A stretch of DNA of 43,543 nt from IMG/VR virus record IMGVR_UViG_2541047719_000002, positions 1 to 43,543 of that record. One strand, written 5' to 3'. The notes beneath the pieces were generated by a model, which saw nothing but the letters and a program-made list of their open reading frames with translations, had not been told where the DNA came from and did no database searches. Position 1 is the first letter of the stretch. Each line of letters opens with the position of its first letter. Of this stretch, positions 34,110 to 37,867 are shown one piece after another. A program made the translations under genes and the position numbers. Origin of the DNA: a virus (taxonomy: Duplodnaviria; Heunggongvirae; Uroviricota; Caudoviricetes).

Positions 34110-36217
34110 GTTTACCAGAGGGGTTTGTTCTGGATGAACAGCCTGATAACTCACAACTTCCTGATGGCTTTGTGCTTGATTCCCAACCAGAACAGCAGCA
34201 ATCTCCTTTGGTTTCACCAGAGGAAAATTCCAGACAGGAAAATGTTGTTAATAATGCTAACGGTTTCGACCGTTTTATGTATGGCGTTCTCAGTGGATTG
34301 ATGGATGTTGGTAAAGGTGTTGGCCTGTTTCAGGATATGACACCAGAAGAGCAAGCCGCAATTCAGTCTCTACAGCAGAAGTTAGCGGCAAAACCATCAA
34401 CCGCACAAGATGTTGGTGAGTTTGTTGGACAAGCAGCGCCATTTGTTAGTGGTGGTGGGATTATTTCTCAGGTTCCGAAAGGGGCGGCAAGGCTGGCTGC
34501 CGCCGCAGGGCTTGGTGCTGGAGAAGGGGCTATTGTAGCCAATGGAACAAATGGCGATGTTGCTTCCGGCGCTGCTATTGGCGCTGTGGCTGGCCCTGTA
34601 GCCGAGATTGTTGGTCCAGCGCTTGGGAAGATTGCAGGAAAAATTAAAAATAGTGCCGGGGATATTTATCGCTCATCCGTAGGGATGGGGAGTAAATCAT
34701 CTAAAGCAACGTTAAAGAAAGCTGCTGGCGCAATGGATAATAAATTTATTGGCGGGCAACGAGCTATTCAAGGTTTCGCCAATGAAGTTAATCCTGATTT
34801 TAACGCGATAAATGCCATCCGTGAGCTAGAACTGGAAAATTATGCCACTCCAGGAATGATCTCTAATAATCCTGCTGTCAGGGCTCTTGATAATGCAGTG
34901 GCAAGTCTCCCTGGAACAGAGATTAGTGAGGCGCATAAGCGCTTTATTACTGAATTAGGAAGAAAAGCTGATGAAATGATAACTTCATTTGGGGGAAACC
35001 TTGATAAGCAACTGGTTTCTGACAGGCTTGCAGATAATTTTGATAAAACCATTTCATCATTACAAAATCAGTCAGATAACATCTACAACAAAATTGCCGA
35101 AAAGGTTCCAGTAAGAGACCGTATTGAGGCAACCAATACATTGAATTTTTTAGAGGATTTTGCTGATGACATAGGTGGAATTGATGAATTATCTCCAATA
35201 ATGAAGCGGACATTGAACCGACTTGATCCAAACACCTTGCCAACGTATGGGCGTTTAGATCTCGCTAGAAAGCAGGTTGGGCAAGCTATTGGCAAAGGCT
35301 CTGGCCCATTCAAGGATGAAGAAACAGGTGTTCTTAAAAAGTTATATGCAGCTATAACAGATGACCAACAGGCTGTCGCAGAAAAATATGGCGCAGGGGA
35401 GTTATGGACGCTTGGTAAGGAGTTGGTAAAAAAACGAAAATCCATTGAAGATGATGCCGTAACCGTTTTGGGTAGAAAACTTCAGCAATCAGCAATTCCA
35501 AAAGTTGAAAGTGCCGTTGTTAATATGGCAAAAGGAAACGGTGGTGACTTTAGGCAATTAATGAAGTCAATTCCAAAGGATATGCGGCAGGAAGTTGCGC
35601 TCACCTCAATGAATAAAGCATTTACCAGCTATGCTAAATCACCAGGTCAGCAATTAGGGGTTGATGGATTTGTAAAATGGTATAACGGAATGTCACGCAA
35701 TGGGGCCAATATGAAGGCTCTCCGTGATGCTATTGGCACAGATGCATCAAAGCGCCTTGATACGATTTATCAAGCTGCCAAGGCTATGAATAGACTCAAT
35801 ACTGGTAAGCAGTATGCTAGCAGCCTTGTGGATCAGCAAGTTAATAACTTTCTGAAGGAAAAGGGTAGTCTAGCAAAAATTTATGGAATAGCCTCAAAAG
35901 CTGCTGCGGCGGAAGGTGTTACAAGCTTATCTGGTCTTCCTGGTGTAGGTGCAACAGGGGTGATAACGTCCGCATTGATGTCAGGGAAAACAAGCAGGAT
36001 AAAGGCTGCTGATGCTCTACTGTCTTCTCCTGAGTTTAAATCAATGCTATTTCGCCTGCAAAACGCACCAGTAGACAGAGCAGAAGTGAGACGCGCAATA
36101 GAAAGGAAACTGATGCAATCTGGGGCATTTAAGAGATGGGAGAAAACCCTATCAACAGATGAAGCAAAAACCATTGCCCGCACGGGGATTATTACATGGC
36201 TCGCTAGTGACAGTTAG
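34094..36217 (+). CDS. Ejection protein (P22 gp16-like)
   Basis: 707-aa ORF, last gene of the ejection-protein set. Confidence 0.7.
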   Translation: MATNVGLPEGFVLDEQPDNSQLPDGFVLDSQPEQQQSPLVSPEENSRQENVVNNANGFDRFMYGVLSGLMDVGKGVGLFQDMTPEEQAAIQSLQQKLAAKPSTAQDVGEFVGQAAPFVSGGGIISQVPKGAARLAAAAGLGAGEGAIVANGTNGDVASGAAIGAVAGPVAEIVGPALGKIAGKIKNSAGDIYRSSVGMGSKSSKATLKKAAGAMDNKFIGGQRAIQGFANEVNPDFNAINAIRELELENYATPGMISNNPAVRALDNAVASLPGTEISEAHKRFITELGRKADEMITSFGGNLDKQLVSDRLADNFDKTISSLQNQSDNIYNKIAEKVPVRDRIEATNTLNFLEDFADDIGGIDELSPIMKRTLNRLDPNTLPTYGRLDLARKQVGQAIGKGSGPFKDEETGVLKKLYAAITDDQQAVAEKYGAGELWTLGKELVKKRKSIEDDAVTVLGRKLQQSAIPKVESAVVNMAKGNGGDFRQLMKSIPKDMRQEVALTSMNKAFTSYAKSPGQQLGVDGFVKWYNGMSRNGANMKALRDAIGTDASKRLDTIYQAAKAMNRLNTGKQYASSLVDQQVNNFLKEKGSLAKIYGIASKAAAAEGVTSLSGLPGVGATGVITSALMSGKTSRIKAADALLSSPEFKSMLFRLQNAPVDRAEVRRAIERKLMQSGAFKRWEKTLSTDEAKTIARTGIITWLASDS

Positions 36218-36441
36218 TCAACTTTGGTTATTTTGCCTTCTTTTTCTTGATGAACTTTGCATCCATCATCTTTTGATAGCCAAACTAAAAACTTTAAAAC
36301 CTTAAACACAAGTACGGATACTGTAATGAAAGCACCAATTGCAATTATTGCCAGTGAAATTATTTGCATTGGTGCTTTTAATGCAGGGAAAATAGCGTAA
36401 ATGATCGCGAAAACAGTAATTATGAGGAACCATCGCTTCAC
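36214..36441 (-). CDS. Hypothetical two-TM inner-membrane protein (moron; SieA position)
   Basis: 75-aa ORF, GTG start with AAGGAGG RBS; two hydrophobic helices; convergent with gene 16. Confidence 0.5.
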   Translation of the reverse strand: MKRWFLIITVFAIIYAIFPALKAPMQIISLAIIAIGAFITVSVLVFKVLKFLVWLSKDDGCKVHQEKEGKITKVD

Positions 36442-36471
36442 ACCAACCTCCTTAGTTTTTCACAGGATACC

Positions 36472-36837
36472 ATGAAAAAAGTTAACATTGGAAACGTACC
36501 AAAGATGCTCGTTCCGCTCTTTGAGAGCGGTACAATTGTGTTTTGTAGAGACTTTCCAGAATGGCAACGCCTGCATCAAAAACTTGGCGTTGACGTGCAT
36601 GACTCGGACGCCAACGGAGCATCTCATACAATGAGTAGCGAGAATGGTGTTTTGCATGTGATAGGCGTGTTCAATGGCAAACTATCTACCATTGCCCATG
36701 AGTGCGCTCACATGGCATTCGATATCTGCTCAAGGGTCGGTGTTGATGTTGAACCAGGAAGAGCCAACGAGACTTACTGCTACTTAATGAGCAGGCTTGT
36801 TGAGTTCTGCGAGAGACATATCAAAAAGCCGGAGTGA
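36472..36837 (+). CDS. Hypothetical small protein with HExxH zinc-metallopeptidase-like motif
   Basis: 121-aa ORF, ATG start; motif AHECAHMAFD with downstream Glu candidates (VEPGRANE). Confidence 0.55.
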   Translation: MKKVNIGNVPKMLVPLFESGTIVFCRDFPEWQRLHQKLGVDVHDSDANGASHTMSSENGVLHVIGVFNGKLSTIAHECAHMAFDICSRVGVDVEPGRANETYCYLMSRLVEFCERHIKKPE

Positions 36838-36845
36838 CCCGGCTT
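36828..36845. terminator. Candidate bidirectional terminator between convergent moron genes
   Basis: GCCGG-AGTGAC-CCGGC hairpin flanked by A-run on one side and T-rich tract on the other. Confidence 0.45.
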
Positions 36846-36850
36846 GATTA

Positions 36851-37030
36851 TTACTTTTTGCTGTCTGGAGTTCGCTTATCCAATACCCAGCCATGACCTG
36901 GCTTTGTTGTTGGTGGAAGCCTTTCGTTGTCCTTGACGGTGGCAAAATTGTCTTTCTTACCGCCGCGTGGGCCAACTTCTTGGTATATTCCGCCGTTTTT
37001 TCCTGTGTTTTCACCTGGTTTTTTCGCCAT
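36851..37030 (-). CDS. Hypothetical small hydrophilic protein (possibly YjzC-like)
   Basis: 59-aa ORF from ATG 37028-37030 with GAGGT RBS; Gly/Lys/Pro-rich; own promoter-like TTGACT-18-AATATT upstream (37095..37066, minus strand). Confidence 0.45.
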   Translation of the reverse strand: MAKKPGENTGKNGGIYQEVGPRGGKKDNFATVKDNERLPPTTKPGHGWVLDKRTPDSKK

Positions 37031-37117
37031 GATATACCTCAACATACACCCGTTATTGGGCGATTAAATATTGATCTCATTTTATAAGTAGTCAATATGG
37101 CCCAGGTAAATGAAAAA

Positions 37118-37135
37118 ATTAACCAGCCATCAGGC
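37118..37135 (-). terminator. Rho-independent terminator (minus strand)
   Basis: Minus-strand CCAGCC-TGAT-GGCTGG followed by TTAATTTTTT, just downstream of 37141..37323. Confidence 0.45.
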
Positions 37136-37140
37136 TGGTA

Positions 37141-37323
37141 TTAGTCACATTCTATTTCTTTTGTCGAGGTCCATACATAAGGATCTGAGCAAACAACCTC
37201 TCCATTTATCATGACGTCATAGCCCATTAGATATGAGTTACCACCAACAATCTGAGCGGCTATGACGCTAATGCTGGCGGCGCAGGCTGCACCAAAAACG
37301 AAACCAATTAATATATTTTTCAT
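37141..37323 (-). CDS. Hypothetical small exported or membrane-anchored protein
   Basis: 60-aa ORF, ATG start, hydrophobic N-terminus, two Cys in the mature part. Confidence 0.4.
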
Positions 37324-37354
37324 TTTAATTCCAAATAGTTATAGGATGAAAGTT

Positions 37355-37540
37355 ATGACCATAGAAGAACGTCTGAACAACATTGAGTTGAACCAAACCC
37401 TGCTTGACCAGCGACTTTCAGATCTTGAGCTTAAAGATCTAGATGCGCAAATATCAGAAGCAGAAGCCAAACTCTCCAGCTTAAATCACCGTAAGAAGCA
37501 AATCCGCGACAGAATTACTCAGGGACGCGGAAGTTGTTGA
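37355..37540 (+). CDS. Hypothetical small coiled-coil protein
   Basis: 61-aa ORF from ATG 37355 (AGGA RBS at 8-nt spacing); heptad-like Leu pattern. Confidence 0.35.
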   Translation: MTIEERLNNIELNQTLLDQRLSDLELKDLDAQISEAEAKLSSLNHRKKQIRDRITQGRGSC

Positions 37541-37549
37541 AATCCTAGT

Positions 37550-37867
37550 CTATTTTTTCTCAGAGCTCATATTGTAATAGGTGGTATAAATAGAGATTGA
37601 TTTCTGACATGCTTCAAGAAATTGCTGCGGAGTCATCCCAAGCCTTGCTTGCTCTGTAGTAAGGAATCTCTGTAAGAATTCATTCCCACCTGGCATGTTT
37701 GTAGATTCTTGGAATATTGCCATTTGTTTGATTGCACCACACATACCAGCCATTTTCGAAGCTATCATGAGGCCTTGTATTTCATCAAAACTGCTATCGT
37801 CTGATTTTGTTTCTGCGTTAGCTATGCTCGAGAGACACAGGAGCAATAGGATAGCGATACGTTTCAT
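37550..37867 (-). CDS. Hypothetical periplasmic protein with Sec signal peptide, co-transcribed with mnt
   Basis: 105-aa ORF with signal peptide MKRIAILLLLCLSSIANA; start overlaps mnt stop by 4 nt. Confidence 0.5.
   Translation of the reverse strand: MKRIAILLLLCLSSIANAETKSDDSSFDEIQGLMIASKMAGMCGAIKQMAIFQESTNMPGGNEFLQRFLTTEQARLGMTPQQFLEACQKSISIYTTYYNMSSEKK

Follow-up and report, generated by a model that had tools for sequence, protein, structure and literature searches.

What do the small genes that a P22-like prophage carries between its last ejection-protein gene and its immunity region do, and do they work as one system? We address this question in a stretch of viral DNA of 43,543 nucleotides (IMG/VR record IMGVR_UViG_2541047719_000002; the whole 43.5-kb stretch is hereafter the window), in which six small open reading frames, ORF1 to ORF6, lie between gene 16 and mnt. 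The window corresponds to a complete P22-like (Lederbergvirus-type) prophage with an integrase, a CI-like repressor, the P22-type ejection genes 20 and 16, an immI region and a tailspike gene, and its closest phage record is Escherichia phage Kapi1 (MT813197; 96% identity over 65% of the right half). An initial annotation had presented the six ORFs as the best candidate for an undescribed exclusion or defence function, with the look of a module acting at the envelope. We lean, with slightly more belief than doubt, towards a reading in which they constitute four cassettes, each with a proposed role of its own: ORF1 in the place of the P22 exclusion gene sieA, the ORF2/ORF3 pair, the ORF4/ORF5 pair, and ORF6 coupled to mnt.

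The interval between genes 16 and 9 of P22-like phages has been named the 'ant moron' (Villafane et al., 2008, PMC2629481) and described as variable (PMC2629481; bioRxiv 10.1101/2020.10.05.325894). The six-ORF interval is the left part of it: homologues of genes 20 and 16 are found upstream, mnt, arc, the sar RNA, ant and the tailspike gene downstream, and gene content varies over the 80 loci described below. The cluster is thus not undescribed, since the region had already been published and two of its genes already had names, ORF2 being hkcC of phage HK620 and ORF3 orf59a of P22, both uncharacterised.

Mosaic structure and expression signals of the interval

The 80 loci are fetched loci that encode ORF2, and the presence of every gene was scored in each of them. 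More than 30 patterns were obtained, the genes assort independently, and none of the loci contains all six ORFs. Indeed, P22 and HK620 carry ORF2 and ORF3 without the other four, Kapi1 carries ORF4 and ORF5 without ORF1, ORF2 and ORF3, and ORF1 occurs without ORF4 to ORF6. Furthermore, no phage record (50,697 searched) and no complete Escherichia coli genome (5,426 searched) covers at least 80% of the 2.1-kb query, parts of which are carried by 261 of these E. coli genomes, and the homology junctions coincide with gene boundaries. The interval would represent the left half of the ant moron, a hypervariable stretch of accessory genes that reaches from ejection gene 16 to tailspike gene 9, and would be composed of four cassettes that recombine independently at gene boundaries.

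All six genes are found where the initial annotation had placed them, on the strands that it had given (Table 1). Over its full length, each matches a single PHROG family annotated as 'unknown function', at E-values between 1e-31 and 1e-69 (ORF1, phrog_7294, E=3e-48; ORF3, phrog_3202, E=1e-31; ORF4, phrog_37095, E=2e-46; ORF5, phrog_7586, E=1e-43; ORF6, phrog_19844, E=1e-69). Substitutions among natural variants, counted in the annotated frame as synonymous to non-synonymous, amount to 29:9 in ORF2, 15:4 in ORF3, 6:2 in ORF4, 23:12 in ORF5, where this frame was the best of six, and 5:0 in ORF6, patterns that support the coding of these five genes. Hydrophobic segments and leaders were taken from a simple hydropathy scan, which agrees with the protein features initially described, namely two spans in ORF1 (residues 2-23 and 23-56, both strong) and N-terminal leaders in ORF4 and ORF6; the scan gives neither a leader nor a hydrophobic segment for ORF2, ORF3 and ORF5. 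The functions discussed below for all six proteins are those that we infer.

Transcription of the interval would involve three minus-strand units. The first would run from the PsieA equivalent into ORF1; the second from Pmnt (candidate TTGTGA-17-TAATAT) through mnt, ORF6 and ORF4, ending at the hairpin at 37139-37122; and the third from the promoter-like site upstream of ORF3, ending at the hairpin at 36845-36826. Late transcription heading to the tailspike gene, up to which that of P22 runs on, would cover ORF2 and ORF5 on the plus strand. The timing of expression of all six genes is likewise inferred. Part of these signals is shared with P22, to which window 36439-37139 aligns without gaps at 97% identity. 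The right-hand limit of this homology, 37139, corresponds to P22 14527, P22 mnt ends at 14519, and the P22 counterpart of the hairpin at 37139-37122 overlaps the mnt end; at the corresponding place the HK620 annotation reports a tMNT remnant.

Table 1. Window positions of the six ORFs, their expression signals and the adjoining immI features
Feature	Position	Strand	Description
ORF1	36214..36441	-	75 residues, two predicted membrane spans, charged C-terminal tail; occupies the sieA slot
PsieA equivalent	36464..36502	-	promoter of the sieA-slot gene; within the first codons of opposite-strand ORF2
ORF2 (hkcC)	36472..36837	+	predicted cytoplasmic mini-zincin of 121 residues; late-operon strand
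Bidirectional hairpin terminator	36826..36845	both	common to convergent ORF2 and ORF3; tORF59A in the HK620 annotation, t mnt in the P22 annotation
ORF3 (P22 orf59a, HK620 HkcD)	36851..37030	-	predicted basic Gly/Lys/Pro-rich cytoplasmic protein of 59 residues, net charge +6
Promoter-like site TTGACT-17-AATATT	37067..37095	-	upstream of ORF3; 9/12 consensus match only; within the P22-shared stretch
Minus-strand hairpin terminator	37122..37139	-	just after ORF4; right-hand limit of the P22-shared stretch
ORF4	37141..37323	-	predicted exported mini-protein of 60 residues, about 38 when mature, two Cys in the mature part
ORF5	37355..37540	+	predicted coiled-coil-like cytoplasmic protein of 61 residues; late-operon strand
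ORF6	37550..37867	-	predicted exported helical protein of 105 residues, conserved Cys pair C43/C87
mnt-type Arc-family repressor gene	37864..38100	-	first gene of the proposed minus-strand unit continuing into ORF6; Pfam Arc, E=7e-13
sar RNA (RF00262)	38357..38423	-	71.6 bits, E=4e-14; antisense regulator of ant

ORF1 in the sieA slot and ORF6 behind mnt

The initial annotation had placed superinfection-exclusion genes such as sieA between the last ejection-protein gene and immI of P22-like phages, which is correct for sieA in P22 according to the P22 annotation. ORF1 occupies the same position: it is encoded between genes 16 and 9, on the strand that the late genes do not use. Its first codon is that of sieA, preceded by the ribosome site and promoter of sieA, and the upstream 100 nucleotides are common with P22. 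Its GTG start (36441-36439) is preceded by an AGGAGG ribosome site 5 nucleotides upstream. The window, P22, HK620 and Kapi1 share CACCAACCTCCTTAGTTTT, which comprises the minus-strand start codon, the spacer and the Shine-Dalgarno site, and homology among the four breaks exactly at the start codon of the slot. The PsieA annotated in P22-pbi (13861-13891) falls on window 36472-36502 through the ungapped alignment, and at the PsieA equivalent a relaxed scan detects TTCCAA-18-TATCCT, to which an extended TG belongs. For P22 sieA, 85 bp of upstream DNA are enough to give exclusion when the gene is present in a single copy (PMC10883804).

The slot gene, whose start codon is 30 nucleotides from the ATG of ORF2, takes 12 forms in the 80 loci. 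They are mutually unrelated (BLASTP, E<0.01), and 11 of them have a predicted membrane span, leader or lipobox. Besides SieA and hkcB, they include a lipoprotein of 161 residues, leader-bearing proteins of 129 and 68 residues, two proteins with an N-terminal anchor and a coiled coil or soluble domain (109 and 106 residues), an anchored protein of 149 residues, two-span proteins of 62 and 75 residues (the latter being ORF1), a relative of ORF6 (99 residues) and a protein of 140 residues without any hydrophobic segment. The relatives of ORF1 itself are all at least 84% identical; where they differ, one hydrophobic residue replaces another in the first span, the second span and the tail being invariant. 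As the first cassette, ORF1 would be an inner-membrane protein with two spans, expressed from the conserved weak PsieA by way of the ribosome site of SieA itself. Its position and topology suggest that its role is most likely SieA-like, i.e., that it would be made by the prophage and would stop the delivery of related phages' DNA across the inner membrane.

ORF1 was found beside only one C-terminal type of gene 16 (seven of seven loci; in the window, 34094-36217 on the plus strand with 36214-36441 on the minus strand). Another such type adjoins four or five different slot alleles, which indicates that the boundary between gene 16 and the slot recombines; the linkage of ORF1 to its gene-16 type may reflect mere adjacency or may be meaningful. 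A broader proposal can be made here. The position after gene 16 would be a fixed 'socket', made of a conserved weak promoter, ribosome site and start-codon position, for unrelated small envelope proteins (at least 12 kinds were seen, including SieA, ORF1 and the ORF6 relative), each of which would block the trans-envelope DNA conduit in an arms race with variable gp16 and gp20. In that case ORF1 would block DNA entry as a new and minimal protein of two spans, and its association with one gene-16 type would be a trace of that race. Taken as a whole, we consider this proposal rather unlikely. A peptidoglycan-hydrolase domain, a possible target of a periplasmic inhibitor, was looked for in the gene 16 and gene 20 homologues, and none was found.

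The second site where a lysogen protein could be encoded is that of ORF6, whose ATG overlaps the mnt stop codon (ATGA). The family is small, with 11 clusters among 5.8 billion proteins. The AlphaFold2 (AF2) model has three helices with moderate confidence (predicted local distance difference test, pLDDT, 74), and the search for its structural neighbours returned none that is informative. Besides the N-terminal leader, export is suggested also by the 46%-identical Kapi1_059, for which the Kapi1 annotators give a DeepTMHMM signal peptide and which fills the sieA slot of Kapi1. In a P22-like prophage of Citrobacter, a homologue at 65% identity presents the same overlap with the mnt stop and is followed by a 204-residue SieA relative, which contains an RYPGEA motif and has 28% identity to the P22 protein, and then by gene 16, with no hkcC/orf59a unit before the latter. 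The apparent operon of mnt, ORF6 homologue and SieA relative is at 3756-4946 of the Citrobacter freundii prophage locus L094. This recurrent association of ORF6 with sieA and mnt is the best argument for ORF6 as lysogen cargo acting in the envelope. As the fourth cassette, it would be an exported helical protein translationally coupled to mnt, and, after ORF1, a further candidate for lysogenic conversion or exclusion at the envelope.

Other genes were also observed behind mnt. In E. coli L3Cip3 (NZ_CP062211.1; locus L092, 3682-4218) a gene for a 178-residue 'ATP-dependent Clp protease proteolytic subunit' overlaps the mnt stop, Kapi1 has a leaderless protein of 69 residues there, and P22 has nothing. 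Such varied occupants point to a second cassette site just downstream of mnt.

ORF4 is 98% identical to Kapi1_060, in which the Kapi1 annotators' DeepTMHMM notes place a signal peptide at residues 1-22, and it occurs in one of the 50,697 phage records. Exclusion or defence had been proposed for the cluster as a whole; what stands of it is that ORF1 and ORF6, and less clearly ORF4, all on the minus strand, with predicted envelope location and in the sieA slot or its neighbourhood, are legitimate candidates for exclusion or lysogenic conversion. The defence part finds no counterpart in PADLOC-DB v2, where no model matches any of the six ORFs and the best scores are at noise level (ORF1 to a '4TM effector', E=0.046; ORF5, by coiled-coil type, to PbeC and JetC).

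Several findings weigh against an exclusion role and against the expression scheme that goes with it. Sequence searches of all six proteins in Pfam, NCBIfam, PADLOC and PDB were empty or below threshold, in keeping with the initial remark that none resembles a nameable function, and no homology ties any of them to exclusion. ORF1 has no similarity to P22 SieA by BLASTP (E=2.3), and none of the six matches Pfam, the SieA family PF26849 included; as a positive control, the 204-residue Citrobacter protein matches SieA with E=1e-7. With its two spans ORF1 is under half the size of SieA, which has at least 164 residues and more spans. Moreover, its synonymous to non-synonymous count is 3:7, from too few variants to judge, and purifying selection is not demonstrated. 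The initial annotation had also given several ORFs their own promoter-like elements and terminators. The two hairpin terminators stand, but promoter-like matches in the interval number 4 vs 5.5 expected in shuffled sequence and are not above chance, so that the case for own promoters consists of the homology to P22 PsieA and the single 9/12 match upstream of ORF3. RNA-seq of the Kapi1 lysogen did not detect mnt (Kapi1_063), and Kapi1_059 to Kapi1_062 are not among the undetected genes listed (PMC12922286). The mnt of Kapi1-type loci is 96-98% identical to that of the window, and its non-detection in the Kapi1 lysogen makes transcription of ORF6 and ORF4 from Pmnt doubtful. Finally, the ClpP-like gene and the 69-residue leaderless protein mean that the post-mnt position also accepts non-envelope cargo.

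It is possible, though on balance doubtful, that ORF1, ORF4 and ORF6 are lysogenic-conversion factors serving host fitness (envelope stress tolerance, serum or bile resistance, colonisation) and not anti-phage proteins, in the manner of lambda Bor and Lom. Such a role agrees with the envelope location predicted for the three proteins and with their orientation, which would permit expression in a lysogen, and also with the ClpP-like gene, non-exclusion cargo in the neighbouring post-mnt slot. Furthermore, carriage of the Kapi1 prophage, in which ORF4, ORF5 and a relative of ORF6 are found, brings a competitive advantage to the host and changes its lipopolysaccharide, the responsible genes being unassigned (PMC8787464). 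Nevertheless, among the occupants of the ORF1 slot only SieA, an exclusion protein, has been characterised, and the slot keeps its promoter and ribosome site (PMC10883804), and relatives of ORF6 adjoin or replace sieA. Nothing links ORF1, ORF4 or ORF6 to any host-fitness family.

We regard as improbable that ORF1 would damage the membrane, as a holin-like protein, a type I toxin or an abortive-infection depolariser acting on superinfection, instead of blocking DNA entry. Two spans and a charged C-terminal tail are the shape of class II holins and of small membrane toxins, and the 75 residues of ORF1 have that shape; the '4TM effector' match would fit too, yet its score is noise. A Kapi1 deletion construct with the hypothetical genes flanking 'hyp19' was toxic in non-lysogens (PMC8787464), the genes involved not being resolved and Kapi1 having no ORF1. 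Against such an activity, no sensor or antitoxin gene is linked to ORF1, which stands under a constitutive weak promoter in replacement of a non-toxic blocker.

Of the sequenced P22-like phages, only a third carry sieA (PMC10883804). The analysis of the slot suggests what the others may carry, and gives a shortlist of a dozen or so small envelope proteins, unrelated to one another, to which ORF1 belongs. Should several of these block DNA entry, they would be of use in probing the conduit that short-tailed phages build across the envelope; if none does, the region would be a depot of assorted lysogen cargo.

The hkcC/orf59a unit, ORF5 and the surrounding genes

At 99% identity, ORF2 corresponds to hkcC of HK620 and to a P22 ORF (13861-14223) that has been left without annotation. 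Its motif, H76-E77-x-x-H80, keeps H76, E77 and H80 invariant in 19 close relatives, and an alignment of 76 diverse relatives has only four invariant columns, these three and E100. The latter is 20 residues past H80, and a Glu at this distance from the second His is the thermolysin-type gluzincin spacing; E100 may be the third metal ligand. The AF2 model, which is confident (pLDDT 89), consists of a small beta-sheet and two helices, with HExxH on one and E100 opening the next (100-116). A profile search of 1.84 billion representatives found relatives in 514 clusters at 50% identity, nearly all of 110-130 residues. In BFVD, 26 structural neighbours were obtained at E<=1e-3; their sources are crAss-like viruses and phages of Pseudomonas, Ralstonia, Erwinia, Achromobacter and Eggerthella, and a few of the neighbours bear the name 'SprT-like' or 'Metalloprotease'. 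No curated peptidase family in Pfam or NCBIfam matches ORF2, and a PDB profile search gave nothing below E=0.1. The SprT-like profile PF10263 does not match it either, and is reached by 2 of the 76 relatives at E=1e-4; given the BFVD neighbours of that name, ORF2 may still be distantly related to it. In the literature, the name hkcC was met only as an acronym with other meanings. The P22 ORFan pid was considered as an identity for ORF2 and ruled out, as it lies at a different locus (40357-40998 of NC_002371).

The distribution of the family is informative as well. Relatives of 38-40% identity are located between lysis and terminase genes in ST64T, L and epsilon34, relatives lie within the late operons of ST64T and mEp044, and others belong to a lytic Schitoviridae (N4-like) phage and to a lytic Autographiviridae phage, between ligase and RNA polymerase genes in the last case. 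Some P22-like phages have a second hkcC-like copy near the terminase genes; none was found in the window. The HExxH protein had been counted among the parts of an exclusion module, against which argue the absence of a leader, the late-operon strand and the relatives in strictly lytic phages. On the same grounds a function in lytic growth is the better reading. ORF2 would be a soluble mini-zincin, probably acting as a metalloprotease during lytic growth on a host or phage target.

A different use of such a protease, which we hold to be very improbable, would be regulatory: as an ImmA/IrrE-type enzyme, ORF2 would cleave on induction Mnt, Arc, the main repressor or the ORF3 protein made in the lysogen. 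That an HExxH protein adjoins the immI regulators, and that its convergent pairing with orf59a is conserved over phage types, would suit this idea. However, hkcC is intact in HK620, whose mnt and ant are mere remnants, is present in siphovirus prophages without immI, and has relatives in lytic phages without repressors; moreover, ORF2 occurs without ORF3 in about a dozen of the 80 loci and has no match to Pfam Peptidase_M78.

ORF3 is 98% identical to P22 orf59a, and its weak tblastn relatives are found in Gram-positive phages, the one in a Clostridium phage being an opposite-strand small gene in the head gene cluster. The pair that it forms with hkcC also travels. In siphovirus-type prophages of Klebsiella oxytoca and Rosenbergiella, ORF2 homologues of 60-62% identity lie between the tail-tube and tape-measure genes and are followed by a convergent 59-residue gene with 45-46 of 59 residues identical to ORF3; these copies are inside tail operons (L095, 5001-5563; L097, 5001-5556). 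The hairpin between the two genes is kept in both, with a different stem sequence in Klebsiella. This recurrence of pair and hairpin indicates that hkcC/orf59a is a mobile two-gene unit crossing phage morphotypes, a reading qualified by the loci that have ORF2 without ORF3. As the second cassette, it would be a convergent pair with one common hairpin in P22, HK620 and siphovirus-type prophages, in which ORF3 would provide a small basic cytoplasmic protein with its own promoter-like site and terminator hairpin. P22 is a classical model phage, yet hkcC and orf59a, beside its immunity region, are still without assigned function; the hkcC family, large, uncurated and made of HExxH+E proteins of about 120 residues in temperate and lytic phages, brings a biochemical hypothesis to it.

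ORF5 occurs in four of the phage records, and its coiled-coil-type matches are weak. It diverges from ORF4, the start codons being 31 nucleotides apart, and the same pair exists as Kapi1_060/061. In this third cassette, a small coiled-coil-like protein encoded on the late strand would accompany a mini-protein that is secreted and contains two Cys. The RefSeq label 'XhlA family', attached to a 92-residue extended call of ORF5, was rejected: Pfam PF10779 scores 12.7 bits vs a cut-off of 34.7 (E=0.14), NCBIfam lends no support, and the protein lacks a hydrophobic segment. In loci without ORF3 and ORF4 (L047, L010, L045 and L063, about 4400-4625 on the minus strand), an unannotated two-span ORF of 74 residues (MISAILSVLLASLFIGVV...) is divergent from ORF5.

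That all six ORFs form one multi-component exclusion or abortive-infection system is scarcely credible: the genes are tightly packed in the sieA neighbourhood and bring an HExxH protein together with proteins predicted to be exported or membrane-bound, but the co-occurrence data already largely refute it, with ORF2 and ORF3 alone in P22 and HK620, ORF4 and ORF5 in Kapi1 and ORF1 apart from ORF4 to ORF6, and it is further opposed by alternating strands with terminators between separate transcription units, by a leaderless ORF2 whose family reaches lytic phages, and by the lack of a PADLOC match.

To the right of the interval, arc, ant and the match to the sar RNA, the sole Rfam match (no RNA family was found inside the interval), confirm the immI layout and an intact region. 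Between mnt and arc, a perfect 19-bp palindrome, TGGTATAACGGTTATACCA, was read by eye at 38154-38172; the palindrome shares positions with a promoter-like site for arc and ant, TTGCAT-17-TATAAC, and is probably the Mnt/Arc operator of this immI variant. For the arc-type gene (38174-38362, plus strand), the ATG at 38189, with GGAGG 5 nucleotides upstream, is a likelier start than the mechanically listed TTG at 38174. In the tailspike (39404-41332, plus strand) only the N-terminal head-binding part, about 130 residues, matches known tailspike families. Downstream of it are a gene for a 158-residue phrog_5139 protein of 'unknown function' (41828-42304, minus strand) and a transposase gene (42413-43543, plus strand) that runs past the window end.

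Relation to the ant moron and to known exclusion proteins

Compared with the ant moron as previously known, the window has the same high genetic flux, with hkcC as ORF2 and 59a as ORF3. It differs in its set of genes (ORF1, hkcC, 59a, ORF4/5 and ORF6), which is absent from the 80 loci, the 50,697 phage records and the 5,426 E. coli genomes, and in the rarity of ORF1, ORF4 and ORF6, each present in one or two phage records. A likeness of another kind concerns ORF3, which aligns to nearly the whole model of the YjzC-like proteins (Pfam PF14168, positions 8-54 of 55), with a score of 19.1 bits (E=0.0017) that stays below the cut-off of 25; the YjzC family is itself without assigned function.

With P22 SieA, known in types A, B and C (PMC10883804), ORF1 has in common the slot, the strand, the position of the start codon, the ribosome site and the upstream promoter region. 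Both are predicted inner-membrane proteins, and relatives of ORF6 are found beside sieA or in its place. Apart from size and number of spans, the difference is that ORF1 lacks the conserved RYPxEA motif, the cytoplasmic F-x-RYP-x-EA of SieA.

Small membrane or periplasmic moron proteins encoded in late-gene regions block DNA entry in other phages, as do T4 Imm and Spackle, HK97 gp15, TP-J34 Ltp and Tuc2009 Sie2009. The last three are listed in PMC10883804. In size, predicted location and moron setting, ORF1 and ORF6 are similar to these proteins.

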